This document shows, piece after piece, positions 7,310-31,909 of a stretch of DNA of 32,000 bases; positions within the stretch are counted from its first letter, which is position 1; each line of letters opens with the position of its first letter. Both the position numbers and the translations under genes were made by a program. The DNA lies in the NCBI RefSeq assembly GCF_000020385.1, contig NC_010814.1:600001-632000 (forward strand), written 5' to 3'. This stretch comes from Trichlorobacter lovleyi SZ (GTDB taxonomy: Bacteria; Desulfobacterota; Desulfuromonadia; Geobacterales; Pseudopelobacteraceae). The notes below the pieces were generated by a model. The model saw only the letters and a list, made by a program, of their open reading frames with translations, was not told the DNA's origin and did no database searches.

Positions 7310-9514
7310 TTACCGCTTTGCCAGCCAGATTTCAACCCGGTTGTTGCGCTGCCTGCCCTCTTTGGTACTGTTGTCGGCCACCGGCAGGCTTGAGCCGAAC
7401 CCTTCAGCCGCTGCCACCATGATGCCGCGAGAACGCAGTTCCTGGGCCACCTGACCAACCCGCTGGTGGGAAAGTGCCAGGCTGCTGTGGGGATCGCTGC
7501 TGGCATCGGTGAAGCTGAACAGCAGCAACTGGCGTCCCTGCAGCTCTTTGGTTGAGAGCGCCCGCACCAGCCGGTCCAGGTCGCGATAGGCCTTGTTGTC
7601 AAGCTGGCCGTCGGCGGTGAATTTGACGTTGAGCGAGAGGCGTTCCGCACTGCTTGCCAGCATGCGGTAACGCTCAGGGGCATTGGCAGGGATGGAGGAG
7701 TTGCCCATCCGCACTGAAAGCGGCACAAAGCCGTTTTTTTCCACGATGGCCTGTCCTTCAGGGGAGAGGGCAAATTCGACAAAATCCCTGATCTTCTGGT
7801 TTTTGGGCTGTCCCGGTGTGTAGAGGTAGAGACGGCGGGCCAGACCGTAGTCTTCGGTGGCAACGGTAAAGGGGGTCGGCAGGATCGGCTGGGCACCACC
7901 GCTGATGGCCACCGCCTTGGAGGATTTGACGTAGGGCAGGCCGATGAAGCCGATGCCGTTGGGGTCGCTGGAGACATCCCGTGAGAGCTTGACGCTGTCC
8001 TCGAAGCGCTTGGCCTCTTTGACCAGTTTTTCCTTGTGCAGCACCAGGCTCTTGAAGGTGTCGAAGGTGCCTGATTTGTCATCACGGGCATAGACATGCA
8101 CCGGCGCAGCCTTGGCAGCGCTGTTCAGCTGCTTCCATTCAGGGATCTTGCCGGTGAAGAGCCCCTGGGTATCGGCCATGGTCAGGGTTGCAACCGGGTT
8201 GGTGCTGTTGACGATGACCGCCACTCCGTCCAGGGCCAGGACATGCTCGTTGGCGCGGGAGGTCATGTTCCCCAGCAGCGACAGCCGCTTGACCTCGTCA
8301 TCCTTGATCCTGCGGGATGACATGCCGATGTCGCAGGCGTTGGCCTGCAACCCTTCAAAGGCGGTGGTGGAGCCGTGGGCCTTGATCTCCACCGCCCGGT
8401 TACGGCGTCCCTCCATGATTCCTTCCACCAGCTGTTCTTCGTGGTTTTTGCCCGGTACCCGCCGGATACGGACCGCCCCCTGCTTTTTGAGAAACTCCTC
8501 GGCCAGCGCGGGGGCCAGTTCTGCGCCGATGGTGTTGGAACCCTGCAGCTTCAGGATGATGTCGTAGGAGTTGATCCAGTGGTAGTAGTAGCCGCCGCCG
8601 GTTGCCAGCAGCAGGGCGCTCACCAGCGATGACATCACCAGGCCGCGGCGGCGCCTGAGCCAGGAGTCGGCAATCCCTTCGGCCGGTGCCTTGGGCAGCA
8701 GGGCGACCCGGTGCGCCTCAAGGGCGGCCAGGAACTCGACGCAGCTCTGGTAGCGGTTGGCCGGGTCCTTTTCCAGGGCCTTGTGGACGATGGCTGCCAG
8801 CTCTTCATGGGTATCCGGCGCAAAGCTCCTGATATCCGGGATGGTGCTGTCAAACTGGTTCATCAGGGTATCGACCGCGGATTCTTCGCTGAACGGCAGC
8901 CTGCCGGCCAGCATGTTGTACAGGATCAGCCCCACGGCGTAGATGTCGCTCTGGGGGGTCACGGTAAAGGGGTTCAGGATCTGCTCCGGGCTCATGAAGG
9001 CGGCCTCGCCTCCCTGACCAACCTCCTGCAGGTCTTCGCCGTACTTCAGCAGCGCCACCCCGAAGTCGGAGATCTTCAGCCCGCCGTTGCGGTCCAGCAG
9101 GATGATCGCGGTGGTCAGGCCACGGTGGATCACCCCTTTGTCATGGGCGAAGCGCAGCCCCTGCAGCAGCCGTACCGCATAGTGCAGGGCAATCTGTTGC
9201 GGAAAGGGACCATTATGTTCGATCATCCGGTCCAGGGCAGCGCCGTTATAGTATTCCATCACCAGCCAGAACCCGCTGTTGTGCTCAAAGAAGTCGGTGG
9301 CCTGCAGGATGTTGGGATGCACCATCCCGGCCAGCAGCTTGGCCTCGTTATAGAACCGCTCCCGGTATGATTCGGTGCCCGGCAGCTTCGGGGTCAGGGA
9401 TTTCAGCAGGAAACGCTTGCCCAGCAGGATATGTTCGGCCATCAGCAACGCCCCTTTGCCGTAGGGGGCCGCCCCTTCGATGCGATAGTGATACAGCATG
9501 GTTCCCTTTTCCAT
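7310..9514 (-). CDS. Hanks-type Ser/Thr kinase-like (predicted pseudokinase) - TM - PstS-like periplasmic binding domain - OmpA-like domain
   Basis: 734 aa.
- Kinase fold, aa ~6-265: FLLK, NEAKLL, DFG and SPE are present, but the catalytic loop reads HRGLTTAI instead of HRDLKPxN.
- TM segment, aa ~291-314.
- PBP_like_2/PstS-type domain, aa ~320-600: GSNT, GSTTA and R-x3-SGT (ARDDKSGTF).
- OmpA-C-like end: GFGSSLPVADNSTKEGRQRNNRVEIWL. Confidence 0.85.
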   Translation of the reverse strand: MEKGTMLYHYRIEGAAPYGKGALLMAEHILLGKRFLLKSLTPKLPGTESYRERFYNEAKLLAGMVHPNILQATDFFEHNSGFWLVMEYYNGAALDRMIEHNGPFPQQIALHYAVRLLQGLRFAHDKGVIHRGLTTAIILLDRNGGLKISDFGVALLKYGEDLQEVGQGGEAAFMSPEQILNPFTVTPQSDIYAVGLILYNMLAGRLPFSEESAVDTLMNQFDSTIPDIRSFAPDTHEELAAIVHKALEKDPANRYQSCVEFLAALEAHRVALLPKAPAEGIADSWLRRRRGLVMSSLVSALLLATGGGYYYHWINSYDIILKLQGSNTIGAELAPALAEEFLKKQGAVRIRRVPGKNHEEQLVEGIMEGRRNRAVEIKAHGSTTAFEGLQANACDIGMSSRRIKDDEVKRLSLLGNMTSRANEHVLALDGVAVIVNSTNPVATLTMADTQGLFTGKIPEWKQLNSAAKAAPVHVYARDDKSGTFDTFKSLVLHKEKLVKEAKRFEDSVKLSRDVSSDPNGIGFIGLPYVKSSKAVAISGGAQPILPTPFTVATEDYGLARRLYLYTPGQPKNQKIRDFVEFALSPEGQAIVEKNGFVPLSVRMGNSSIPANAPERYRMLASSAERLSLNVKFTADGQLDNKAYRDLDRLVRALSTKELQGRQLLLFSFTDASSDPHSSLALSHQRVGQVAQELRSRGIMVAAAEGFGSSLPVADNSTKEGRQRNNRVEIWLAKR

Positions 9515-18425: not shown

Positions 18426-18485
18426 ATGGTGGCAATTAAGCAACACACACCTGAAAATACCAACAATACCAAGGAGGATGTACCA

Positions 18486-19451
18486 ATGTTGAAGAAGAGC
18501 GTCCTGGCGCTGTGCGCCACCCTCTGCATCGCCACTGCAGCCCATGCGGAAAAAGTCAAGGTTGATGCAAAGCTGCCGTCCTACAAGGCCACCTCAGGCG
18601 TGTCCGGCAACCTGAACAGCATCGGTTCCGACACCCTGAACAACCTGATGACCTACTGGGCAGAAGGCTTCAAAAAGAAGTACCCCAACGTCAACATTCA
18701 GATTGAAGGCAAAGGTTCATCAACTGCTCCTCCTGCGCTGATCGCCGGTACCGCCCAGCTGGGCCCCATGTCCCGCATGATGAAGGGCAAAGAGATTGAG
18801 GATTTTGAGAAGAAGTACGGCTACAAGCCGACCAAGGTTGGCGTGGCCCTGGATTCTCTGGCTGTGTTTGTTAATAAGGATAACCCGATCAAGTCACTCT
18901 CCCTTGATGAAGTTGACGCCATCTTCTCCAAGACCCGCAAGCGCGGGCTGCCTGAGATCACCACCTGGGGTCAGGCCGGTGTGCATGGCGCCCTGGCTGC
19001 CAAGCCGATCTCCCTGTTCGGCCGTAACTCCGCCTCCGGCACCTATGGTTACTTCAAGGAGCACACCCTGAAAAACGGTGACTACAAGAATACCGTTAAA
19101 GAGCAGCCCGGTTCCGCCTCTGTGGTTGAAGGTGTTGCCAAGGATATCAGCGCCATCGGTTACTCCGGTATCGGCTATGCCACCTCCGGCGTCAAGGCAG
19201 TGCCCCTGTCCGATAAAAAAGGCGGCCAGGTGTTTGAGGCCAACTATGCCAACGTGCTGTCCGGCAAGTATCCCCTGGCCCGTATGCTCTACATCTACGT
19301 AGCCAAGAAGCCGGGTGAGCCGATGCCCAAGGTGGTGGAAGAGTTCCTGAAGTTTGCCCTGTCCAAGGAAGGCCAGCAGATTGTGGTCAAGGACGGCTAT
19401 GATCCGCTGCCTGCATCTGCTGCTGCCGAGCAACTGAAGGCGTTGAAGTAG
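18486..19451 (+). CDS. pstS: Phosphate ABC transporter substrate-binding protein
   Basis: Signal peptide MLKKSVLALCATLCIATAAHA. PstS-family blocks are GSDTL, GKGSSTAPPALI and R-x3-SGT (GRNSASGTYGYF). AAGGAGG lies upstream of ATG 18486. Confidence 0.9.
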   Translation: MLKKSVLALCATLCIATAAHAEKVKVDAKLPSYKATSGVSGNLNSIGSDTLNNLMTYWAEGFKKKYPNVNIQIEGKGSSTAPPALIAGTAQLGPMSRMMKGKEIEDFEKKYGYKPTKVGVALDSLAVFVNKDNPIKSLSLDEVDAIFSKTRKRGLPEITTWGQAGVHGALAAKPISLFGRNSASGTYGYFKEHTLKNGDYKNTVKEQPGSASVVEGVAKDISAIGYSGIGYATSGVKAVPLSDKKGGQVFEANYANVLSGKYPLARMLYIYVAKKPGEPMPKVVEEFLKFALSKEGQQIVVKDGYDPLPASAAAEQLKALK

Positions 19452-19463
19452 AAACGGCCTGAA

Positions 19464-19542
19464 CCCTTCTCCCCGAGGGAGAAGGGGGCCGAAGGCCGGA
19501 TGAGGGGGCAGCAGTGATCTGAAAGATTCCTCTGCCCCCTCA
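19464..19542. repeat. Cluster of GC-rich hairpins in the pstS-pstC spacer
   Basis: CCCTTCTCC/GGAGAAGGG (19464-19486), GGCC-GAA-GGCC (19487-19497) and TGAGGGGGCAG/CTGCCCCCTCA (19501-19542, 11 bp). Confidence 0.85.
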
Positions 19543-19548
19543 CCCTAG

Positions 19549-19579
19549 CCCTCTCCCTCAAGGGAGAGGGAATTTTTTC
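19549..19579 (+). terminator. Intrinsic terminator or attenuator after pstS
   Basis: CCCTCTCCCT-CA-AGGGAGAGGG stem followed by AATTTTTT (T6 at 19573-19578), 13 nt before the pstC ATG. Confidence 0.75.
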
Positions 19580-19591
19580 TCAGGATTCTCC

Positions 19592-21517
19592 ATGGCCTCC
19601 TCAATTGTAGATAAATCCCGTCGTAATGACCGTCTGGCCGCCTGGCTGATCAAGGCCGGCGGTCTGTTTGTGATCGTTGCCGTCATCGGCATTCTGATGC
19701 TGATCGCCCGGGTCGCCCTGCCGCTTTTTTATGCGCCTTCTGCCGACAGGCTGCCCGAGGTCTCTGCCGAACTGCAGGCGCTGCTTGCAACTGACGGCTC
19801 CGGTACCAGCCAGACCCGTGAGCTGGGTGAAAGCGGTTCCCTTACGATAACGCTGCTGCCGGGCAACCGGTTTGCCGTCCAGCGCCGTAATGTTGAAAAA
19901 GATCTGCTGGGGAATGAAAAAACGACGGAACAGAGCTACAAGCTGTCTGACCCGTTGCCCGGTACGATCTCGACCTTCTGGCTGGGGCGTAAGGGACAGA
20001 ACCTGTACGCAGGCACTGATAACGGCTGGCTGGTGCGCTGGGATCTGTCCGGCGACGGTGAAGGACGACTGATTGAAACGGTGGAGGCATTTAAGGATCA
20101 TCGCCGCATCACGGCCCTGGCAACGGTGCTGGGCGATAACTCGCTGGCAGTGGGTGATGCCAGGGGAGAGATCACAACCTGGATGCCGATTGCCAAGCCG
20201 GGCAGCGGTGAAGACAAACAGCTGGCGCTGATCCACCACCTGCCGGGGTTTGCCCAGCCGGTCAGCCGCTTGCTGGCCTCTCCGCGTGACAAGTCTCTGG
20301 CTGCCTTTGATGCCGGCGGGACGATCAGGCTGGTGCATATGACCAGCGAACGGCTGCTGCTGGAACTGCAGGCCGGGCTGCCGGTCACTGCGGCAGCCTT
20401 TGCCGACCGTGGCCGCCAACTGGTGGTGGCTGGTGCCGACGGCAGGAGCGTGGCCTGGAAACTTGATATCCCGCACCCTGAGATATCGTTTTCGACCCTG
20501 TTCGGCAAGGTCTGGTACGAAGGCTACAATAAACCTGAATATGTCTGGCAGTCCTCGGCAGCCACCGACGACTTTGAACCCAAGATCTCTTTGATGCCGC
20601 TGATCTTCGGCACCTTCAAGGCCACCCTGTTTGCCATGCTGTTTGCGGTGCCGCTGGCCTTGCTGGGGGCGATCTATACCAGCCAGTTCATGGCCCCGTC
20701 CCTGAAGGGGCGGATCAAGCCGGCGGTTGAGATCATGGCGGCGGTGCCGTCAGTGGTGGTCGGCTTCCTGGCCGGACTCTGGCTGGCCCCGCTGATGGAC
20801 AAACACCTGCTGGCGCTTTTTCTGGCCACGATCATGGTGCCGGCCATGTTGCTGGCTGCCATCCTGGTCTGGCGTCCCCTGGCTGAAAAGACCGAGATCG
20901 GCCGCAATCTGAAGGGATACGAGTTTCTGGGGCTGCTGCCGGTGGTGGTGCTGGCGCTCTGGCTTTCAGGACAACTGGCAGTGCCCCTTGAGGCGACCTT
21001 TTTCGGCGCCGATCTCAAGCAGTGGCTCTATTCGGCGCTGGGGGTGCGCTATGACCAGCGCAACAGCATCATTATTGCCATTGCTCTGGGATTTGCCGTG
21101 ATCCCGATCATCTTTACGATTGCCGAGGATGCCCTCTCCAACGTGCCCCGCAACCTGTCCGCCGCCTCTCTGGCCCTGGGGGCCAGCCGCTGGCAGACTG
21201 CCTGGAGAGTGGTGCTTCCTTCAGCCCTGCCGGGCGTCTTTTCCGCGATCATGATCGGCTTTGGCCGTGCCGTCGGTGAGACCATGATCGTGTTGATGGC
21301 AACCGGCAATACCCCGATCATGAGCTGGTCCCTGTTTAACGGCCTGCGTTCGCTCTCGGCCAACATCGCGGTGGAGATCCCCGAGGCACCTTTGAACGGT
21401 ACCCTCTACCGGACCCTGTTTCTCTCAGCAGTGCTGCTGTTTGTGCTGACCTTTATCATCAACACCGCGGCCGAACTGCTGCGGCAACGCTTCCGTAAAA
21501 AGTACGGACGGTATTGA
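19592..21517 (+). CDS. pstC: Phosphate ABC transporter permease, long form with a ~290-aa periplasmic N-terminal domain
   Basis: 641 aa. The C-terminal half has the PstC signature AASLALGASRWQTAWRVVLPSALPGVFSAIMIGFGRAVGETM. The N-terminal TM is followed by four repeats spaced ~45 aa apart: GTDNGWLVRWD, GDARGEITTWM, DAGGTIRLVH and GADGRSVAWK. Confidence 0.88.
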   Translation: MASSIVDKSRRNDRLAAWLIKAGGLFVIVAVIGILMLIARVALPLFYAPSADRLPEVSAELQALLATDGSGTSQTRELGESGSLTITLLPGNRFAVQRRNVEKDLLGNEKTTEQSYKLSDPLPGTISTFWLGRKGQNLYAGTDNGWLVRWDLSGDGEGRLIETVEAFKDHRRITALATVLGDNSLAVGDARGEITTWMPIAKPGSGEDKQLALIHHLPGFAQPVSRLLASPRDKSLAAFDAGGTIRLVHMTSERLLLELQAGLPVTAAAFADRGRQLVVAGADGRSVAWKLDIPHPEISFSTLFGKVWYEGYNKPEYVWQSSAATDDFEPKISLMPLIFGTFKATLFAMLFAVPLALLGAIYTSQFMAPSLKGRIKPAVEIMAAVPSVVVGFLAGLWLAPLMDKHLLALFLATIMVPAMLLAAILVWRPLAEKTEIGRNLKGYEFLGLLPVVVLALWLSGQLAVPLEATFFGADLKQWLYSALGVRYDQRNSIIIAIALGFAVIPIIFTIAEDALSNVPRNLSAASLALGASRWQTAWRVVLPSALPGVFSAIMIGFGRAVGETMIVLMATGNTPIMSWSLFNGLRSLSANIAVEIPEAPLNGTLYRTLFLSAVLLFVLTFIINTAAELLRQRFRKKYGRY

Positions 21518-21530
21518 CGTGAAGACAATG

Positions 21531-21656
21531 GAACGCGGATGACACGGATCTGGCGGATCATCGCGGATTTGAAAGGCAGAACAAAGACCGTAAGGGTTAA
21601 ATCCGGTTTAATCAGTTAATCCGCGCAAATCAGCTCAATCAGCTTCATCCGCGTTC
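21531..21656. repeat. Long palindromic element between pstC and pstA (CGGAT/ATCCG class)
   Basis: Perfect 12-bp outer arms GAACGCGGATGA (21531-21542) and TCATCCGCGTTC (21645-21656). CGGAT starts at 21536, 21545, 21554 and 21564. ATC(C/A)G starts at 21601, 21611, 21619, 21629, 21638 and 21647. Confidence 0.9.
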
Positions 21657-21690
21657 TATTAATGATAGCTTCTATCCAAAAGGTGTACCT

Positions 21691-23283
21691 GTGAAAAACT
21701 ACTGGAAACGTGGCGAACCAATGGTGCTGACTGCCGGGGCAACCCTGGCGGTGATTCTGTTCATGACCTTGACCCTGATGGCCGTTATTCTGGGCAACAG
21801 TCTGGGCTACTTCTGGGTCAAGGGGCTGGTGCGCTATAAACTGACTGACGGCAGCTACCTGATGGGGCAGCTGACGGCCAAGGAACGGCATGCCTTGACC
21901 AATGTCAAGCGGGTGCAGCTGAAGGTCGGCAACCGGGATCTCTACTCCCAGGATTTCCGCTGGGTGGATGAGTCGGAGGTGGCAGAACGGGATATCCCCA
22001 AAGATGCCTATCTGCTGGAGCGTCGTGAACACGGCAATTTCTTCGGCTTCCTGAAGGAGCTGCGGGGGAGTGACGGCGTTGCAGTTGCGGCTGATCCGGT
22101 CTCCCTGAAACGTCTGCACGAGGCAACGGTGCAGAGGCAGCAGGGGCTGAAGGATATCAAGGATCGGATGTCCAGTCTGAACCAGGCCTCCGAGCGTCTG
22201 CGGCTCAAGGTCCAGAAGCTTGAGTTCCGTGGAGCCGAGGCGCATGCCGCCGAGATTACTGCCCTGAATGAAAAGAAGGCAAAGCTGACCGAAGAGTTTG
22301 ACGGGCTGAATGAACAGCTGAACCAGAAGCAGGGGGAGCTGAACAAGGCCGTAGCGGTCTTCAGCGATGCTGCCGGAACCGCCAAGGAGCTGCCGCTGCT
22401 GGAGATTGTGCGGATTTATCAGCCCAACAGCATGTCGGTGTTTGCCAAGGCCTGGGCTTATCTGGGCAAGATCCGTGAGCTGCTGTTTGATGACCCCCGT
22501 GAATCGAATACGGAAGGCGGACTCTTCCCGGCCATCTTCGGCACGGTCATGATGGTGCTGCTGATGTCGGTTTTCTCGCTGCCGTTTGGGGTGATTGCCG
22601 CCATCTACCTGCGGGAGTACGCTAAAGAAGGCAGGCTGGTACAACTGGTGCGGATTGCGGTCAACAACCTGGCCGGCGTGCCTTCGATCGTCTACGGCGT
22701 GTTTGGTCTGGGCTTCTTTGTCTACGGCATCGGCGGTTCGCTGGACAAGCTGTTCTTTCCGGAGCGCTTACCGACCCCGGTATTCGGTACCGGCGGTATC
22801 CTCTGGGCCTCCCTGACCCTGGCGCTTTTAACCGTGCCGGTGGTGATCGTGGCCACTGAAGAGTCGCTTGCCTCAATTCCGAAGGGGATCCGTGAAGGCT
22901 CACTGGCGCTGGGGGCCACCAAGTTCCAGACCCTGACCAAGGTGCTGCTGCCGATGGCCACACCGGGTATCATGACCGGCCTGGTACTCTCCATGGCCCG
23001 TGCCGTGGGGGAGGTGGCGCCGCTGATGATGGTGGGGGTGGTCAAGCTGGCCCCGACCCTCCCCTTTGACGGACAGTTCCCGTTCTTTCACATGGATCGC
23101 AAGTTCATGCATCTGGGCTTCCATATCTTCGATGTCGGCTTCCAGTCTCCCAATGTCGAGGCCGCCAAGCCGATGGTCTACGTCACCACCTTGCTGCTGC
23201 TGCTGATCGTGGTTGTCGCCACCAGCCTGGCGATCCGTTTCCGTAACCAGATGCGGCGCAAGTACACCACGTCACATTTCTAA
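21691..23283 (+). CDS. pstA: Phosphate ABC transporter permease, long form with a periplasmic coiled-coil insert
   Basis: 530 aa. Contains the PstA block EGSLALGATKFQTLTKVLLPMATPGIMTGLVLSMARAVGEVAPL. A heptad-like charged segment spans aa ~125-215. Start is GTG 21691, with ATG 21721 as the alternative. Confidence 0.88.
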   Translation: MKNYWKRGEPMVLTAGATLAVILFMTLTLMAVILGNSLGYFWVKGLVRYKLTDGSYLMGQLTAKERHALTNVKRVQLKVGNRDLYSQDFRWVDESEVAERDIPKDAYLLERREHGNFFGFLKELRGSDGVAVAADPVSLKRLHEATVQRQQGLKDIKDRMSSLNQASERLRLKVQKLEFRGAEAHAAEITALNEKKAKLTEEFDGLNEQLNQKQGELNKAVAVFSDAAGTAKELPLLEIVRIYQPNSMSVFAKAWAYLGKIRELLFDDPRESNTEGGLFPAIFGTVMMVLLMSVFSLPFGVIAAIYLREYAKEGRLVQLVRIAVNNLAGVPSIVYGVFGLGFFVYGIGGSLDKLFFPERLPTPVFGTGGILWASLTLALLTVPVVIVATEESLASIPKGIREGSLALGATKFQTLTKVLLPMATPGIMTGLVLSMARAVGEVAPLMMVGVVKLAPTLPFDGQFPFFHMDRKFMHLGFHIFDVGFQSPNVEAAKPMVYVTTLLLLLIVVVATSLAIRFRNQMRRKYTTSHF

Positions 23284-23306
23284 GCTGTACAAAAGGATGA
23301 AAACTG

Positions 23307-24092
23307 ATGAGTCCAGAATCTGTTGATCTGAGTAAACATCCCGCCATTATCGAGGTTGAGAACGTCAATCTCTATTACGGGGCTTCGCAGGCACTGAAAG
23401 ATATCTCGCTGACCATGCGCCGCAATCAGGTGACCGCCTTTATCGGCCCTTCCGGCTGCGGCAAGTCAACCCTGTTGCGCTGCCTGAACCGGATGAACGA
23501 TCTGATCGATTCGGTCAGGATTGAAGGCAGTATCCGGCTTGACGGTGATGAGATCACCGGAAACAGGACCGATGTCATCTCGCTGCGCCGCCGGGTAGGG
23601 ATGGTTTTTCAACAGTCCAACCCGTTCCCCAAGTCGATCTATGAAAATATCGTGTACGGCCTGCGGATCGCCGGGATCAATGACAAGGCCACCCTGGATG
23701 AAACCGTGGAACGGAGCCTGAAAGGTGCCGCGATCTGGAATGAGGTCAAGGATCGCCTGCATGACTCGGCCCTGGGGCTGTCCGGCGGTCAGGCACAACG
23801 GATCTGCATTGCCCGGGCGATTGCCACCAACCCGGAAGTGATCCTGATGGATGAACCCTGTTCAGCCCTGGACCCGCTTTCAACGCTGAAGATTGAGGAA
23901 CTGATTGACGAACTGAAGGAACAGTATACGATTGTGATCGTGACCCACAACATGCAGCAGGCAGCGCGGGTTTCCGATGCAACCGCCTTCTTCTATCTGG
24001 GGGAGCTGATTGAGATGGGTGATACCAAAAAGATCTTCACCAACCCTGAAAAACAACAAACGGAAGATTACATAACAGGGAGATTCGGCTAA
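23307..24092 (+). CDS. pstB: Phosphate ABC transporter ATP-binding protein
   Basis: Walker [10 protein letters not shown], signature LSGGQAQR and Walker B ILMDEP are present. The PstB-typical N-terminus and the C-terminal [10 protein letters not shown] are also seen. Confidence 0.95.
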
Positions 24093-24212
24093 AAACAGCC
24101 CTTTTTCGCCCTGATCCCGTCAAGCTGCTGCCTGCCTTGTGCGACGTACTGCCTGTACGTCTCCGCGTCAGGCCTTGCTTGCCGGAACCATGACGAAAAA
24201 GTTCGTGTTTTT
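24091..24212. repeat. Long imperfect palindromic element between pstB and phoU (same core as 16583-16702)
   Basis: Arms 24091-24125 and 24177-24212 are about 27 of 35 complementary with one indel. The central core is CGACGTACTG (24142-24151) plus TGTACG (24154-24159). Confidence 0.8.
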
Positions 24213-24251
24213 TGAGTAGCAGCTTTTACTTTTGTTTTTGGAGAATACGTT

Positions 24252-24920
24252 ATGAGTGGACATGTAGTTTCATCCTACGATGCAGACCTGAACGATCTGC
24301 GGCAGCGAATTCTGACCATGGGCGGGCTGGTGGAAAAGATGATCGCCGATGCGGTCAAGTCGCTGGTTGACCGGGATACCGAGCTTGCCGAGCGGATCAT
24401 TGCCATGGACCATGAGGTGAACAACCATGAGGTCGTGATCGACGAACGCTGTCTGGAACTGTTGGCGCTGCGTCAACCCACCGGCAAGGACCTGCGTTTT
24501 ATCACCCTGGCTCTGAAGATTGTCACCGATCTGGAGCGGATCGGCGACAAATGTGCCAACATGGCCAAGCGGGCCCGGCAACTGAACCAGGAACCGCCGC
24601 TCAAGCCGTACATCGATATCCCGCGTATGGCCCACTGGGTTGAGGTGATGATCAAGGAGGCGCTGGATGCCTTTGTACGCGGGGATGACGTCCTGGCGGT
24701 CAAGGTCTGCAAGGACGACCAGATGGTGGATGACCTGAATGAGCAGGTTCAGCGTGAGCTGTACAGCTACATGATTGAGGACCCTTCGACCATCAGCCGT
24801 GCCATGCGCCTGACCTACATTTCCAAGTCGTTGGAGCGGATCGCCGATCATGCAACCAATATTGCCGAGATGGTGATCTTTATGGTCAAAGGCAAGGATA
24901 TCCGCCACACGATCGCCTGA
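24252..24920 (+). CDS. phoU: Phosphate signalling complex protein PhoU
   Basis: 222 aa with two PhoU repeats. Typical motifs are LERIGDKCANMAK and LERIADHATNIAE. Confidence 0.93.
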   Translation: MSGHVVSSYDADLNDLRQRILTMGGLVEKMIADAVKSLVDRDTELAERIIAMDHEVNNHEVVIDERCLELLALRQPTGKDLRFITLALKIVTDLERIGDKCANMAKRARQLNQEPPLKPYIDIPRMAHWVEVMIKEALDAFVRGDDVLAVKVCKDDQMVDDLNEQVQRELYSYMIEDPSTISRAMRLTYISKSLERIADHATNIAEMVIFMVKGKDIRHTIA

Positions 24921-27318: not shown

Positions 27319-27420
27319 GCCGCGAAAGAACGCAGAGAACGCAAAGATGAGTTTTGGAGTAGTTTGGCTTGAACCCTTCAATAATGCATGTTCTTTGTGA
27401 TCTTTGCGATCCTTTGCGGC
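27319..27420. repeat. Palindromic element (GAACGCA/TGCG class) downstream of mqnE
   Basis: The 29-nt arms 27319-27347 and 27392-27420 show 23 Watson-Crick pairs, 3 G-T and 3 mismatches. The arms are 9-10-nt tandem units: GAACGCA at 27328 and 27337, and CTTTG(T/C)G at 27393, 27402 and 27412. Confidence 0.88.
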
Positions 27421-27436
27421 CAATAATTCCCACGCC

Positions 27437-28435
27437 GTGATCCACTGTCCGTTCATCAAACAGCCTGCCCCTGATGGTTTTCAGACCGCTCTTAAACGCC
27501 TTTCCCGGCGGTTTCAGGTCTACGCTGCCACCTCACCGCAACCGCTACCGGCTCCGGGGCTGCTCATCACCCCGGAGATCCGGCAGCAGTCCGAACTGTA
27601 CCTGCCGATCAGTGAAATCAGACAGTTGTTCTATCGCCTGTATCAGTATGTCCTCAGTCATCCACCTATCTTCGGAAACACGCCATTTCACACCTGTCCC
27701 AGTTGGGCTGACTGCTTTGTTGCGCTGCCTGTCTGGCTGCAGTTTTCAGCCAATCCGGCCCGTTTGTTGGAGAGGTTGCTGGATGATCAGCAGTTGTTGA
27801 CCCGTTTCCTCTTTTCTTCTTTTCTGCCGGGCCGTTTTAATGGCGCAGGATTTGGACGCTATCCGGGGCAGCTTAGTTGGTTACAGCAGCATCTGGCACA
27901 AAAAAACGGATCTCTGCGGATACTTGATGCAGCCTGTGGCAGTGGTGAAGGGACCTGGGAGGTGGCAGAACTGCTGGCTGAACAGTGCTGGCAGCCGGAG
28001 CAGGTTCAGCTTGAGGGCTGGACCATTGAGCCGCTGGAGGTCTGGGCAGCGCAGACACAGTGCCTGCCCCATGACCCGCAGCGGGAGAAGAACTATCAGC
28101 AGCGGGTGCAGCCATTACGGGAACAGGGCTGGGGGGAACGGATCAGCTTCAGGGCTGTTGATCTGCTGGCTGGGCAGGTTGAATCAGCCCCCTTTGATCT
28201 GATTCTCTGTAATGGCCTGCTGGGAGGGCCGATTATCCATCAGCCCCGACCGTTACAGCAGGTGGTGATGCAGCTTGCAGCCCTGCTGGCAGAAGGAGGC
28301 GTACTGCTGGTTGCTGACCATTTTCACGAAGGCTGGAAAAAACGGGTGCCGGAGGCGGTTCTTGGCGCCTTGATGGAGAAAGCCGACTTGCAGGCACGGC
28401 AGGCCGGAGGAGGGCTGGCAGCCATCAGAAACTGA
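27437..28435 (+). CDS. Class I SAM-dependent methyltransferase, CheR-like motif set
   Basis: LRILDAACGSGEGTWEVAELL resembles the CheR motif I (WSAGCSTGEEPYS) and FDLILCNGLLGG resembles the CheR FDLIFCRNVLIY. There is no in-frame ATG near the 5' end. TTG 27404 lies inside the repeat arm, so GTG 27437 is used here. The start is uncertain. Confidence 0.6.
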   Translation: MIHCPFIKQPAPDGFQTALKRLSRRFQVYAATSPQPLPAPGLLITPEIRQQSELYLPISEIRQLFYRLYQYVLSHPPIFGNTPFHTCPSWADCFVALPVWLQFSANPARLLERLLDDQQLLTRFLFSSFLPGRFNGAGFGRYPGQLSWLQQHLAQKNGSLRILDAACGSGEGTWEVAELLAEQCWQPEQVQLEGWTIEPLEVWAAQTQCLPHDPQREKNYQQRVQPLREQGWGERISFRAVDLLAGQVESAPFDLILCNGLLGGPIIHQPRPLQQVVMQLAALLAEGGVLLVADHFHEGWKKRVPEAVLGALMEKADLQARQAGGGLAAIRN

Positions 28436-28440
28436 CAGTT

Positions 28441-29409
28441 TTAATAGAAATACTGTCGATCTTTCAGGTTGTATAAGCCGCCTACCTGATCAGTGTAGCC
28501 GTTGTAGAGCAGGGTTTTACGACGTTCATTGCTGCCCAGCAGGGACTCTTCGGCCTGGCTCCAGCGTGGATGGGGAATCGCCGGATTGATGTTGGCCCAG
28601 AAACCGTACTCGTTCGGAATCATGGCGTTCCAGAAGGTAGCGGGCTGCCGGTCGGTAAAGACTATTTCAACCACCGACTTGATGCTTTTGAAGCCGTATT
28701 TCCACGGAGCAACCAGCCGGATCGGCGCGCCGTGCTGTTTGGCCAGTTCATGCCCATAGAGGCCGGTGGCCATGAAGCTGAGGTCATTCATCCCTTCGGC
28801 AAGCGTAAGCCCTTCGTGGTACGGCCAGAGCTCAACACTGCTCCGCTTCTGTTCCGGAGCCTGGTCACGCCTGAGAAACGAAATAAACGAGATATGCGTT
28901 GCCGATGACAGCGGTTCAACCCGCTTGATCAGGGCAGACAGCGGAAATCCGATCCAGGGAACCGCCATTGACCAGGTCTCCACACAGCGAAAACGATAGT
29001 GACGTTCCTCTTGCGGGATCAATTTCAACAGCTCGTCAACAGAAATGGTCAGCGGTTTTTTAACCAGCCCGGTAATCTTCAGTTCCCAGGGGCGGGTCAG
29101 AAAGCGATCTACCCGGCGCCAGACCTCTTTGCTATGGGTAAATTCATAAAAATTGGTGTATGCGGCAGCCTCTGCCTGATCAGTCAGCGGACGATCCAGC
29201 CGGTAGCTGCCGTTGCGGGGAGCGTGCAACTGCTTCAGGTTGACCAGCGTACCGTTCAGATCACGGCTCTGGGCAGCGTAGTTGGTGCAGGCGTTCAGCA
29301 GAGGCCAAGCGTTCAGCCCCAGAAAACCGAGCGCCTTCAACAGGGTACGCCGGGTACGGAAAACCTCTTCTGCGGTCAACTCGGATGTCGGCAGCTTGTA
29401 GCTCTGCAT
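28441..29409 (-). CDS. msrP: Periplasmic protein-methionine-sulfoxide reductase catalytic subunit (YedY/MsrP, molybdopterin)
   Basis: Tat-type signal RTRRTLLKALGFLGL. NFYEFT, RFRCVETWSMAVPWIGFPL, GAPIRLVAPWKYGFKSIKSVV and HPRWSQAEE run colinear with E. coli MsrP. Confidence 0.9.
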   Translation of the reverse strand: MQSYKLPTSELTAEEVFRTRRTLLKALGFLGLNAWPLLNACTNYAAQSRDLNGTLVNLKQLHAPRNGSYRLDRPLTDQAEAAAYTNFYEFTHSKEVWRRVDRFLTRPWELKITGLVKKPLTISVDELLKLIPQEERHYRFRCVETWSMAVPWIGFPLSALIKRVEPLSSATHISFISFLRRDQAPEQKRSSVELWPYHEGLTLAEGMNDLSFMATGLYGHELAKQHGAPIRLVAPWKYGFKSIKSVVEIVFTDRQPATFWNAMIPNEYGFWANINPAIPHPRWSQAEESLLGSNERRKTLLYNGYTDQVGGLYNLKDRQYFY

Positions 29410-29475
29410 AACAGCCCTCCCCTTGGTCAGATTACTGCAGGGCCGGATAGTCAGTCCAGGAGCCTGTGATCAGCC

Positions 29476-29512
29476 GATACCGGGGTGCCGCAGATGACGG
29501 CGCCCCGGTATC
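29476..29512 (-). other. GC-rich intercistronic stem-loop between the Met-rich peptide gene and msrP
   Basis: ATACCGGGGTGCC (29477-29489) pairs with GGCGCCCCGGTAT (29499-29511). That gives 13 bp with one non-Watson-Crick position and a 9-nt loop. No U-tract follows on the minus strand. Confidence 0.8.
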
Positions 29513-29522
29513 ATACTACCAG

Positions 29523-29762
29523 TTATTTCATGGCAGGCGCAGCTTCTTTCATCTCTTTTTTCATCTCGCCATCTGCTTTCATCTCTTTTTCAGGCTTTTT
29601 GGCTTTCTTCACTTTCTTGACCATTTTCTTCTTTTCCATCTTCTTGTCTTCCATTTGGGGTGCCGCAGCGTCCATCGGCTTCATCGGCTCTGCAGCGATG
29701 GCTGCAGCAGAAAATGTTGCCAGTGCAGATACAACCGTTAACAACAATGCGAATTTTTTCAT
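29523..29762 (-). CDS. Secreted Met/Lys/Glu-rich low-complexity mini-protein (MrpX-like by composition and context)
   Basis: 79 aa. AAGGAGG lies 6 nt upstream of the ATG. The Sec signal is MKKFALLLTVVSALATFSAAAIA. The 56-aa mature part contains 9 Met (16%) and 18 Lys. Confidence 0.75.
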   Translation of the reverse strand: MKKFALLLTVVSALATFSAAAIAAEPMKPMDAAAPQMEDKKMEKKKMVKKVKKAKKPEKEMKADGEMKKEMKEAAPAMK

Positions 29763-29827
29763 GTTCTGACCTCCTTGTGGTCGTGTTAATGTAATGGCCA
29801 GACCATAACGCGCCTGATGCCCTGCTG

Positions 29828-29847
29828 ACTGTAAGCGTGCTTACAGT
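29828..29847. promoter_or_regulatory. Candidate Crp/Fnr-family operator
   Basis: ACTGTAAGC-GT-GCTTACAGT has perfect 9-bp arms and reads as TGTAA-N6-TTACA, the half-site spacing of CRP-type sites. It lies between the divergent regulator gene (ATG 29905) and the peptide gene (ATG 29762). Confidence 0.5.
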
Positions 29848-29904
29848 TTTTCCATCTGTTTTCACCTTATTGATGCAGTAATGTATCTCTGCGGAGTGAC
29901 TGAT

Positions 29905-30597
29905 ATGCACGATTCAAAGCTGTGGTACCTGAAGAGAATGGATATTTTCAGCGGCTTGACCCCGGATGAGTACGCGGTAATTGATCGCGGCTCACGCTCC
30001 TTATCTCTGAAAAAGCGGGCGCTGCTCCCCTATCGCGGTACAGCCGGTGATGCAGTCTATTTTATCAAGTATGGCCGGATCAAGGTCATCAGGACATCGC
30101 CTGACGGGAGGGCGCTGATTCTGGATATTCTCGGAGCAGGTACCCTGCTGGGAGAGCTTGTCCGGGAGCCGGCAGGAGATGATGAAGGGGTAACGGCAGA
30201 AGCGATGGAAGAGACCTTGCTCTGCATGATGCAGCGGGATAATTTTGATCATCTTATGGAACTTGTGCCGAAACTTTCCACACGGATTACAAAGCTGTGC
30301 GGCCTGCGCCTGAAACGGGTTCAGAACCGTCTGGTAGATATGTTGTATTGCTCGGTTGAAGTGCGTCTTGCAAGAGCCTTGCTCAATCTGGCAGAAGAAT
30401 TCGGTGTTTCTCTGCCAGACGGTATGCTGATAGACCTGCGACTTACCCATAACGAACTGGCAGGATTGATCGCCTCAACCCGCGAAACGGTTTCTGCGAT
30501 GCTTATGGAGCTGCATAAAAGGGGGCTGCTTGAATTCCGCAGGCATCGGATTCTGCTGGTTCAGCCGATGAAACTTGCGGCGATTGCCGGGCGCTAG
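29905..30597 (+). CDS. Crp/Fnr-family transcriptional regulator
   Basis: Contains a cNMP-binding-like beta-roll (DAVYFIKYGRIKVIRTSPDGRALILDILGAGTLLGE) and a C-terminal HTH (THNELAGLIASTRETVSAMLMELHKRGLL). There is no N-terminal Cys cluster. ATG 29905 is preferred over 29881. Confidence 0.85.
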   Translation: MHDSKLWYLKRMDIFSGLTPDEYAVIDRGSRSLSLKKRALLPYRGTAGDAVYFIKYGRIKVIRTSPDGRALILDILGAGTLLGELVREPAGDDEGVTAEAMEETLLCMMQRDNFDHLMELVPKLSTRITKLCGLRLKRVQNRLVDMLYCSVEVRLARALLNLAEEFGVSLPDGMLIDLRLTHNELAGLIASTRETVSAMLMELHKRGLLEFRRHRILLVQPMKLAAIAGR

Positions 30598-30603
30598 ACG
30601 GTG

Positions 30604-31398
30604 TCAAACCGTGCACATGATCCGTTTAACCAGGTAATCACCTCCGATCACCAGATATTCCCCCTCCCCCTTTAACAGACTGGTGGGGAGCAGTTCATCA
30701 AAAAAGAAGATCTTTGAGGTGGGGACCTGTATCCGCCAGACTATCGAGCCGAACTCCCAGGCCCGCTCCTCTTCGTCCGTAAACGAGACCAGATTGTTCA
30801 GCCGCACAATCTGCTCACGCTTGCTCACCTGCTCGATAATCTGATCTTCAGTTGCACCGTTGGTGCCGCGAAAGAGCGTAAGTTGGATCAGTTCGCCATG
30901 ACTGCGGCTCAGCTCGTACTGACAATATTCGTACAACAGATCAAGCTGGGCGTTGATGGCGTTGGTCCGCTTGCTGCCACGGGTACGATCCATGATGTAG
31001 CAGTAGTGGGCCTCTGAATCCGTGCCGCTGATCCGGCCGTTGTGAAAGGTAGGGGCAATTCCCATCCGGCTCTCAACCCAGCTTTTCAGCACCGCCCCTT
31101 CCACTGAATTGCTGTCCATCATCCATCCCTTCAGAAAGCGCAGATAACTGTTCCGTAACGCCTTTCTTGCAGAATCGGTATGGCCGTCCTCATGGTGAAG
31201 CTGGAATTTGACCGAGAGGTAGTCACTGAACACCTGACCACGCTCTTCACGGCTTGCAATGGTATCAAGCTTGTTAAACAGAAAGCGGTTGGCTTCCCGC
31301 ACCCCCTGCAAAAACAGCGGTTGCGGATGTTCGTTGAAGTGACGGGAGCCGATCACCCAGGGGGGCAGGTTGCATAAATTGAAGGCGGTACTCGACAT
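30604..31398 (-). CDS. draT: DraT-family NAD+-dependent ADP-ribosyltransferase (dinitrogenase-reductase ADP-ribosyltransferase-like)
   Basis: FNEHPQPLFLQGVRE, LKSWVESRMGIAPTFH, QLDLLYEYCQYEL, VRLNNLVSFT and LKGEGEYLVIGG match my recollection of Rhodospirillum DraT. The R (TLFRG), S (VSFT) and E-x-E (GEGEY) arrangement of R-S-E ADP-ribosyltransferases is present. Confidence 0.7.
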   Translation of the reverse strand: MSSTAFNLCNLPPWVIGSRHFNEHPQPLFLQGVREANRFLFNKLDTIASREERGQVFSDYLSVKFQLHHEDGHTDSARKALRNSYLRFLKGWMMDSNSVEGAVLKSWVESRMGIAPTFHNGRISGTDSEAHYCYIMDRTRGSKRTNAINAQLDLLYEYCQYELSRSHGELIQLTLFRGTNGATEDQIIEQVSKREQIVRLNNLVSFTDEEERAWEFGSIVWRIQVPTSKIFFFDELLPTSLLKGEGEYLVIGGDYLVKRIMCTV

Positions 31399-31576: not shown

Positions 31577-31909
31577 TTAATACAGCTTGATAACTTCTTT
31601 CAGCACATCAATGATCGGCCCGCTCAGACTTATGATATCAATCCCCAATCGTTCCATCTCCTCTTTCGGGGATTCACCTATCATGGCCGTTACTACCACC
31701 CGGCAGGCGCCTAAACCGCCGGCAATAGCTGCCAGCTTGTCCGCCATCAGGCTGTGCCCCGGACCGGTGCCGCCGCAGTAGGGAGGGGCCTGCACCTCAT
31801 ACAACAGTACAGGCTCTCCTGTCCCTACCTCGAACACTAAAAACCGCTCGGCCTTACCGAAATGGGTATCAATCTGTTTGCCATCGGATGATGTTACGGC
31901 GATCAGCAT
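31577..31909 (-). CDS. NifB/NifX-family (dinitrogenase FeMo-cofactor-binding fold) small protein
   Basis: 110 aa. MLIAVTSSDGKQIDTHFGKAERFLVFEV...ACRVVVTAMIGESPKEEMERLGI fits the Nitro_FeMo-Co family pattern. AAGGAGG lies upstream. Confidence 0.75.
   Translation of the reverse strand: MLIAVTSSDGKQIDTHFGKAERFLVFEVGTGEPVLLYEVQAPPYCGGTGPGHSLMADKLAAIAGGLGACRVVVTAMIGESPKEEMERLGIDIISLSGPIIDVLKEVIKLY

Follow-up and report, generated by a model that had tools for sequence, protein, structure and literature searches.

A conserved methionine-rich peptide gene and msrP with a divergent Crp-family regulator in Trichlorobacter lovleyi: a candidate periplasmic methionine redox module

What might a small, secreted, methionine- and lysine-rich protein do when its gene lies directly upstream of an msrP gene that has no msrQ beside it? 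The methionine-sulfoxide reductase MsrP is usually described together with MsrQ, which passes electrons from the respiratory chain. The question is raised by positions 28441 to 29762 of a 32,000-nucleotide stretch of Trichlorobacter lovleyi SZ (contig NC_010814.1, positions 600,001 to 632,000), which we refer to as a whole as "the window". An earlier reading, made from the sequence only, had proposed here an "analogous but differently wired" pair of a periplasmic methionine sink and its repair enzyme. We found that the two genes belong to a conserved three-gene unit whose third member is a divergent Crp-family regulator, and we interpret this unit, with a probability of about 60%, as a regulator-controlled, two-gene periplasmic methionine redox module.

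The peptide gene and its signals lie at the following positions:

29523..29762, minus strand: gene of a Met/Lys-rich secreted peptide, MrpX-like (from the open reading frame (ORF), the ratio of nonsynonymous to synonymous differences (pN/pS), the family alignment and the composition)
29770..29776, minus strand: Shine-Dalgarno (SD) sequence AAGGAGG of the peptide gene, 7 nt 5' of the ATG (direct sequence reading)
29694-29762, minus strand: predicted Sec signal of the peptide, residues 1-23, MKKFALLLTVVSALATFSAAAIA, with AEP after the cleavage point and then a 56-aa mature part

The ORF encodes a 79-aa product, MKKFALLLTVVSALATFSAAAIAAEPMKPMDAAAPQMEDKKMEKKKMVKKVKKAKKPEKEMKADGEMKKEMKEAAPAMK, and the minus-strand frame, its strong SD and its Sec signal are all present as the sequence-only reading had described them. 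The signal, assigned by eye, shows n-, h- and c-regions, ends in AIA before AE and is kept in 12 homologues, and a purine-rich SD (GGAGG, or GGGGG in lineages L099 and L101) is held at the same position in 8/8 lineages. The mature 56 aa consist of nearly nothing but Met, Lys, Glu, Asp, Ala and Pro. Our counts agree with the earlier ones at 9 Met (16%), 18 Lys (32%) and 8 Glu, to which we add 52% charged residues, 0 His, 0 Cys, a net charge of +7 and an isoelectric point (pI) of 9.7. The methionine richness also holds up against the other 23 proteins of the window, where the Met share is 2.2%; at that share, 9 or more Met in 56 residues have a binomial probability of ~3e-6. The residue after each Met is Lys, Glu, Asp or Val and never Thr or Pro, and the Met spacing comprises one MxxM motif (MKPM) and several Mx3-5M.

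By profile search we gathered a peptide family of 12 members, 78-85 aa in length and 55-100% identical, in whose alignment the length differences amount to whole codons and the methionines are the best-conserved residues of the mature part. Six mature Met (M27, M37, M61, M67, M71 and M78) are invariant in the 12-sequence alignment and a seventh is nearly so, and the loss of a Met (KKKMVKK to KKKPMKK) is offset by a new Met one column away, the total ranging from 7 to 12 across the homologues. Between four lineages, the pN/pS of the peptide gene is 0.13-0.27, as compared to 0.08-0.11 for msrP. The peptide ORF is a genuine gene under purifying selection, and the behavior of its methionines in the alignment indicates selection for Met content.

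An AlphaFold2 model from the family alignment, with pLDDT 63 and pTM 0.24, is non-globular and places a helix at residues 35-74, around which the Met residues are spread without any single face (our own calculation); a single long helix is often modelled for Lys/Glu-rich sequences. Leu, Ile and Phe are nearly missing from the peptide, and its Met residues form no amphipathic face. With 16% Met, 52% charged residues and no fold, it matches the published description of MrpX (PMC4436054). Against Pfam and NCBIfam, the peptide gave sub-threshold noise only (Asr, DUF6943 and the L20 "sunset" domain), and UniRef names the T. lovleyi protein "Pentapeptide MXKDX repeat protein". The corresponding model TIGR02953 (cutoff 41 bits) returned no match at E<=10 for the window peptide, for P0002-P0004 or for the L011 homologue, and likewise none for the L018 peptide, whereas the positive control, C3568 of uropathogenic Escherichia coli (UPEC), reached 35 bits (E 9e-9). 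MXKDX-like units in the T. lovleyi peptide are confined to the C-terminal MKADGEMKKEMKE stretch. At the level of sequence features, the peptide thus looks MrpX-like on every count and lies outside formal TIGR02953 membership.

The second gene of the pair carries two features of note:

28441..29409, minus strand: msrP, molybdopterin methionine-sulfoxide reductase catalytic subunit, 322 aa (NF003767, Oxidored_molyb)
29287..29409, minus strand: predicted MsrP export signal, twin-arginine RRTLLK and then ...WPLLNAC41 (near-invariant N-terminus; lipobox non-canonical)

The assignment is firm: the protein scores 400 bits on the NCBIfam equivalog NF003767 (cutoff 207), has an E value of 2.7e-31 on Pfam Oxidored_molyb (PF00174) and is 43% identical to E. 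coli MsrP, which bears out the earlier call of an MsrP/YedY gene lying co-directionally 113 nt downstream of the peptide gene. The Cys context RxRCVExWSM is shared with the E. coli enzyme, with RFRC142VETWSM in the window protein aligned to RMRCVEAWSM, and Cys142 (codon 28984-28986) we take to be the Mo ligand, as in the E. coli YedY structure. At the N-terminus, RTRRTLLK spans residues 18-25 and Cys41 is encoded at 29287-29289. The segment RTRRTLLKALGFxGLNAWPLLNACTNYAAQ is almost invariant in the seven Geobacteraceae lineages with the msrP start on the contig, a conservation that is unusual for what is predicted to be a signal peptide. Cys41 aligns with the canonical lipoboxes LLAGC (in Pseudanabaena, L013 and L040, and in L029 and L050) and LSAC (L014). 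LNAC is not a textbook lipobox, and for this reason we rate MsrP as only probably a lipoprotein exported by the twin-arginine translocation (Tat) system.

In every context with enough flanking DNA, we observed the same gene order: a divergent Crp-family regulator, the peptide gene, and a ~322-aa Oxidored_molyb protein. The contexts came from exact-sequence look-ups of the peptide and seven homologues, covering at least nine lineages, with L010 and L011 added from the MsrP scan. A peptide gene adjoins a co-directional msrP in the window, in L001-L007, L010-L012, L092-L096 and L099-L102, and on the P0128 contig, so that the small ORF proved to be conserved beside msrP in every informative context, a point on which the sequence-only reading had made its proposal depend. 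The trio of regulator, peptide gene and msrP is kept in at least nine Geobacteraceae lineages, while the genes on both sides vary. On the regulator side these are, depending on the lineage, DraT/nif-associated genes, response regulators, a PAS-GGDEF-EAL protein or DUF155; past msrP they are a methyltransferase, a saccharopine dehydrogenase, an HD-domain response regulator or DsbD_2/FixS. From these varying outer genes we conclude that the unit runs from the regulator to the msrP stop codon.

The regulator and the DNA that separates it from the peptide gene contribute three features:

29905..30597, plus strand: Crp-family regulator, 230 aa, divergent from the peptide gene (Pfam cNMP_binding, HTH_Crp_2 and Crp)
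29830..29845, no strand: candidate operator, the perfect palindrome TGTAAGC-AC-GCTTACA (TGTA-N8-TACA), sole site of its kind in the window and conserved
29802..29807, minus strand: -10-like hexamer TATGGT, 22 nt downstream of the palindrome, a putative promoter element

The regulator's longest ORF opens at 29881 and its likely start is the ATG at 29905. It divergently adjoins the peptide gene in 9/9 lineages, and its Pfam and NCBIfam matches confirm the Crp/Fnr-type neighbor that had been noticed before, now as part of the conserved unit. Among lineages the regulator is 58-88% identical, with invariant LLCMM and D(M/L)LYC in an eight-lineage alignment; the Cys and Met residues of LLCMM and LYC could be redox-sensitive. 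Its closest solved structures are mycobacterial Crp, GlxR and CooA. We considered oxygen sensing of the FNR type and rejected it, as the alignment shows no N-terminal Cys cluster. The palindrome, TGTAAGCACGCTTACA with the invariant form TGTAAGCnnGCTTACA, lies 81-88 nt 5' of the peptide ATG in 8/8 lineages with DNA. It is unique in the window even when 3 mismatches are allowed, and it is kept in L011, L097, L099 and L101 despite intergenic surroundings that cannot be aligned. A TATnnT or TAAnnT hexamer follows it at a distance of 21-22 nt in 7/8 lineages (L011 has TATTCA), and a consensus scan of 28300-30000 found no sigma-70 -35/-10 consensus pair. The distance between hexamer and palindrome would put the palindrome centre at ~-41.5, the activator geometry of class II; a palindrome near -41.5 is the textbook arrangement of class II Crp/Fnr-activated promoters. 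The arrangement, as seen by comparison between lineages, fits a class II Crp/Fnr-type promoter for the peptide gene, with a predicted transcription start and a putative binding of the regulator to the palindrome. Since the Crp-family regulator and its candidate operator belong to the conserved unit, the description of the pair as differently wired fits as well.

Between the two cistrons lies a further conserved element:

29476..29512, minus strand: strong RNA stem-loop of 37 nt in the spacer between the peptide gene and msrP, likely a partial terminator or stabilising hairpin (folding and comparison)

The 64-nt stretch that holds this stem-loop has a folding free energy of -34.3 kcal/mol, with z = -4.1 relative to shuffled sequences. 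A stem-loop occurs at the same spot in every lineage with a different sequence each time, followed by a T-rich tract in L010 and L011 and forming a canonical intrinsic terminator in L099 and L101 (GGGGGCA...TGCCCCCGCTTTTT). In these last two lineages the T-run abuts the msrP SD, which leaves hardly any room there for a separate msrP promoter. An Rfam scan of the window gave no match to any described RNA family, and the stem-loop is accordingly none of the catalogued riboswitches or small RNAs. The simplest reading is that the two genes form a single operon in which the hairpin between them acts as a leaky terminator or stabilises the transcript; attenuation in the window itself would follow the pattern of the relatives. 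Peptide mRNA would then far outnumber msrP mRNA, in keeping with a sink that is used stoichiometrically and a repair enzyme that acts catalytically.

How far does the absence of msrQ extend? A tblastn search (E<=1) with five MsrQ queries, from E. coli, Azospirillum, Nitratireductor, Mesorhizobium and Deinococcus, found no MsrQ homologue in the 32-kb window or in 100 related loci. As a positive control, the E. coli query recovered alphaproteobacterial and Deinococcus MsrQ at 35-40% identity and E<=1e-13 from a 7.3-Gb database. None of the nearest 80 MsrP loci (69 with at least 700 nt downstream) had an msrQ within 4 kb, and none of the Geobacteraceae contexts, some of which reach 10 kb, had one beside msrP. 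The claim that this msrP "lacks msrQ" therefore stands for the gene neighborhood and does not carry beyond it, to the genome. As possible alternative partners, we looked at ORFs with multiple transmembrane segments beside related msrP genes and met Mpo1-like, ZIP, EamA and DoxX proteins and a cytochrome bd subunit II, none of which recurs across the clade; there was no ferric-reductase-like or b561 protein among these neighbors. A search of a large protein database with E. coli MsrQ gave at least 120 matches, which were enterobacterial and uninformative on T. lovleyi, and a literature search for MsrP without MsrQ or for lovleyi methionine sulfoxide reductase found nothing relevant among the papers that it covered.

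The MsrP proteins that have no msrQ nearby also stand apart in sequence. In a neighbor-joining tree, 77 near-full-length unlinked MsrPs formed one clade apart from five MsrQ-linked enzymes, where the unlinked sequences had been collected by means of peptide patterns from the query and the linked set numbers only those five; the split had a bootstrap of 100/100 in a subsample of 30 unlinked and 5 linked sequences. The clade draws on Geobacteraceae, Alphaproteobacteria (including Stellaceae and SAR116), Pseudanabaena, Nitrospinota and Entotheonella, and the nearest MsrP outside Geobacteraceae is only 55-61% identical to that of the window. Fixed differences between unlinked and linked enzymes (window numbering) are T202/R, N208/H, W271/Y, F251/L and A184/M or F, which suggests a different partner surface, and several members of the clade have a canonical lipobox after the Tat motif.

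Within the same clade, a second, unrelated lineage of uncultured bacteria (L018, L107 and L015) encodes a 94-97-aa peptide with 20% Met and a net charge of +7. In this lineage we observed a histidine kinase with an OmpR-type regulator, an MXKDX-type peptide, a hairpin, MsrP and a radical-SAM gene, and no msrQ. The layout with the peptide first and an MsrQ-less MsrP second hence recurs under a different regulator. The coordinates are 3485-4957 in L018, 887-2218 in L107 and 3765-4957 in L015, where the peptide gene copy is probably frameshifted or truncated. Separately, L109 encodes at 1585-1842 a protein (P0143) to which the Joint Genome Institute (JGI) gave the name "pentapeptide MXKDX repeat protein", and its short contigs (2.3-2.8 kb) contain no msrP; MXKDX-type peptides may accordingly not always adjoin a reductase gene.

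Put together, these elements suggest the following course of events for a periplasmic methionine redox module. In response to a presumed inducing signal, the Crp-family regulator would bind the palindrome ~41.5 bp upstream of the start site and activate a -10-only promoter. The non-globular 56-aa peptide would be exported by Sec, and its ~9 exposed Met would be oxidised by hypochlorous acid (HOCl), chlorite or peroxides, sparing envelope proteins. The stem-loop or leaky terminator would keep peptide mRNA in excess, with read-through transcripts giving MsrP. MsrP, Tat-exported and probably lipid-anchored, would reduce methionine sulfoxide in the peptide and in other periplasmic proteins, so that the sink could be recycled. 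The electrons would come from an unlinked MsrQ or from another periplasmic or membrane carrier and not from an adjacent MsrQ, because this MsrP subfamily is never linked to msrQ. The peptide would suit such an enzyme: Rhodobacter sphaeroides MsrP favours substrates that are unfolded and whose Met cluster in polar sequence, with no Thr or Pro on the C-terminal side (bioRxiv 10.1101/243626), a preference that the lack of Met-Thr and Met-Pro pairs in the peptide fits.

Several points weigh against this interpretation. The sink and repair roles in T. lovleyi are drawn from sequence and from analogy. The likeness to MrpX may be compositional only, given that TIGR02953 does not match, which leaves common descent unproven; for sequences of such low complexity, descent of the two peptides from one ancestor appears undecidable. 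The hairpin of the window has no U-tract and went uncalled by a terminator scan of 28300-30000, and msrP may have a weak internal promoter. Nothing ties the Crp-family regulator to oxidants. A Crp/Fnr link to msrP is not unprecedented: in Shewanella, msrPQ was suggested to be under the FNR homologue EtrA, as a suggestion only, untested there (PMC9805139). Furthermore, T. lovleyi is a strict anaerobe for which the relevant oxidant is not obvious. Anaerobic Met oxidation is nevertheless plausible, as it is documented with chlorite in E. coli, which in the absence of oxygen depends on MsrPQ once its nitrate reductases convert chlorate to chlorite (PMC9805139).

The most serious competing explanation concerns the electron supply, which would be ordinary if T. 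lovleyi had an MsrQ gene at another place in its genome whose product served this MsrP, and if "lacks msrQ" described gene order only. We consider this a real possibility, short of even odds. The evidence on absence covers 32 kb of the genome, and in Nitratireductor a canonical msrPQ sits on a plasmid in one species while another (L051) has an MsrP of the unlinked clade, from which both MsrP types could coexist in one genome. What speaks for a different arrangement is that a sensitive search yielded no MsrQ within 4 kb at the nearest 80 MsrP loci, and that the unlinked enzymes form their separate clade, with 100/100 bootstrap and fixed substitutions. On the opposite side stands the proposal of an MsrQ-independent subfamily, sometimes lipid-anchored and served by another donor (in Geobacteraceae this may be, for example, periplasmic c-type cytochromes), to which a Met-rich peptide was recruited independently in at least two lineages, with a Crp-family switch in Geobacteraceae; this wider proposal we regard as tentative and, taken as a whole, doubtful.

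The remaining alternatives concern the peptide itself. That it is a basic, disordered periplasmic protein in which Met is incidental, acting in Asr-like protection, as an MsrP chaperone or adaptor, or as a cationic membrane-active peptide, would agree with its Lys content, with a model of one long helix and with a weak likeness to the Asr model (15-18 bits, E 0.003-0.02). That score is far under the 50-bit cutoff, however, and derives from the signal peptide and the Lys/Ala content; Asr itself, to our knowledge, is without Met. Six invariant Met, with lost Met compensated in the neighboring column, do not look incidental, the scarcity of Leu, Ile and Phe and the missing amphipathic Met face also count against such roles, and the strict linkage to MsrP would be left unexplained, all of which makes this family of roles unlikely. 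We rate as very unlikely the Cu(I)/Ag(I) alternative that had been raised alongside the sink, by which the peptide would bind or buffer these metals through thioethers and the adjacency of msrP would merely keep the ligands reduced. Proteins of the PcoE/SilE and CusF type carry Met/His metal motifs and are linked to cop/cus/sil/pco genes. The window peptide is secreted and Met-rich, with its MKPM and several Mx3-5M spacings, but it has 0 His and 0 Cys, and a net charge of +7 with a pI of 9.7 is unfavourable for cations. Among the window ORFs and in 8 other contexts we recognised no gene for copper or silver resistance, and the only partners that never vary are MsrP and a regulator of the Crp type, as opposed to a metal sensor of the CueR/CusRS type. 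A precedent for metal recruitment exists in the Met-rich segments of CueO, which recruit Cu(I) (PMC11494321). Lastly, a short, low-complexity ORF with no Pfam or NCBIfam match could have arisen by chance or go untranslated, an idea that is barely credible in view of the purifying selection, the whole-codon indels, the SD and signal peptide kept in 8-12 lineages, and the gene callers that predict the peptide gene in independent assemblies.

If the wider proposal of an MsrQ-independent subfamily is true, the locus would encode a self-contained periplasmic methionine redox buffer, whose Geobacteraceae form is switched on by a previously uncharacterised Crp-family sensor. A clade of MsrPs that are unlinked to msrQ raises the question of the reductant for these enzymes, and a module in a strictly anaerobic, organohalide- and metal-respiring host would add to the evidence that methionine oxidation matters without O2. 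The compact set of regulator, operator, peptide, attenuator and enzyme would also be tractable for the idea of a "recyclable methionine sponge" and for finding the signal of the regulator. The novelty that the sequence-only reading had attached to the pair was overstated: MrpX, BcrX and C3568 are published (PMC4436054, PMC8315932, PMC8550376) and the UniRef MXKDX name exists. Absent from that reading were the stem-loop between the cistrons, the probable lipobox of MsrP and the placing of this MsrP in a clade unlinked to msrQ. With the concept already in print, the advance is incremental unless a new electron donor emerges.

The surroundings of the unit in the window yielded some further observations. 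Just 5 nt separate the stop of msrP from that of a methyltransferase ORF converging on it, in agreement with the coordinates given earlier. This 343-aa ORF (27404-28435, plus strand) has weak matches to CheR and SAM-methyltransferase domains, and it is not found at the msrP-convergent position in other lineages, e.g., in L092, where a saccharopine dehydrogenase takes its place. On the regulator flank lie a DraT gene (30604-31398; dinitrogenase reductase ADP-ribosyltransferase, 372 bits) and a Nitro_FeMo-Co gene (31577-31909; NifX/NifB-like), whose adjacency looks incidental because it occurs in T. lovleyi-like lineages and not in L097, L099 or L101. A 734-aa ORF at 7310-9514 combines Ser/Thr protein kinase, PBP_like_2 and OmpA domains, an architecture also found downstream of msrP in L092. 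A phosphate-transport cluster occupies 18426-24920, with PBP_like_2 at 18426-19451 and the rest identified by match to L001 gene calls as two BPD_transp_1 permeases, an ABC ATPase and PhoU. As this cluster lies between the module and the genes that directly neighbor msrP in L092, T. lovleyi may have undergone a rearrangement or an insertion. We also considered recent horizontal transfer of the module and make no such claim; the GC content across the module is 0.48-0.57, which is not anomalous.

How does the unit compare with known systems? In Azospira suillum, MrpX has a signal peptide, 20% Met and 44% charged residues and is probably unfolded; its induction by chlorite or hypochlorite, 20-60-fold, runs through SigF/NrsF, and it is oxidised in vivo and later reduced again. 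It was proposed to be a recyclable oxidant sink (Melnyk et al. 2015, PMC4436054). Both Azospira and T. lovleyi encode a small Met-rich, charged peptide, predicted to be Sec-exported, beside a periplasmic Mo methionine-sulfoxide reductase, with a dedicated regulator gene in divergent orientation. The order in Azospira is yedY1-yedZ1-mrpX, with the peptide last and the membrane haem partner in the operon, whereas in T. lovleyi the peptide comes first, a hairpin follows and there is no partner gene; the regulator is an extracytoplasmic function (ECF) sigma/anti-sigma pair (SigF/NrsF) in the former and a Crp-family protein in the latter. The MrpX-linked reductases, moreover, form a divergent horizontal gene transfer ("HGT") clade, the UPEC enzyme scoring 71 bits on the MsrP model as compared to 400 for the canonical-type T. 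lovleyi protein.

The bcrXQP genes of Brucella melitensis resemble the T. lovleyi unit in that a Met-rich MXKDX peptide is the first cistron, divergent from a regulator; BcrX-BcrQ-BcrP is HOCl-inducible and adds to HOCl resistance (PMC8315932). They differ in having bcrQ (MsrQ-like) between the peptide and reductase genes, and in their control by the ECF sigma factor BcrS and the anti-sigma AbcS. In UPEC CFT073, the secreted peptide C3568 measures 80 aa with a Met share of 17% (PMC8550376), and the local pattern MK(x)DG-x-MKK occurs both in it and in the T. lovleyi peptide, there in the C-terminal half. Unlike the T. lovleyi unit, c3566-c3568 has the peptide last, a cytochrome b-type membrane partner and two-component control by OrhK/OrhR; the UPEC reductase has just 27.6% identity with E. 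coli MsrP, and C3568 has His, Cys and a near-neutral charge. We note that RefSeq lists c3566 (L091 30552-31150; NC_004431.1 3415551-3416149) as a frameshifted "cytochrome b/b6 domain-containing protein" pseudogene, with 4 stops in a straight translation, while the published work treats c3566 as functional.

The E. coli MsrPQ (YedYZ) system (Gennaris et al. 2015) shares with T. lovleyi a homologous catalytic subunit, the Tat signal and the Mo-Cys context. There, msrP is directly followed by msrQ, is under HprSR control and is not known to have a dedicated Met-rich peptide; the E. coli MsrP export signal ends in AHA without a lipobox Cys, and the T. lovleyi enzyme falls in the separate unlinked clade. 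The TIGR02953 family, for its part, resembles the T. lovleyi peptide in size, signal peptide and Met/Lys/Asp-rich repeats, but it is Lys/Asp-rich where the T. lovleyi family is Lys/Glu-rich, and the five-residue period of the latter is partial (MEDKK MEKKK MVKKV). The principle embodied by MrpX, BcrX and C3568 is thus already published, and all of these systems include a membrane haem partner. Distinct in the T. lovleyi unit, as far as comparison of the genes can tell, are a Crp-family regulator with its candidate operator, the peptide-first order, an attenuator-like hairpin, and an MsrP of the msrQ-unlinked clade.

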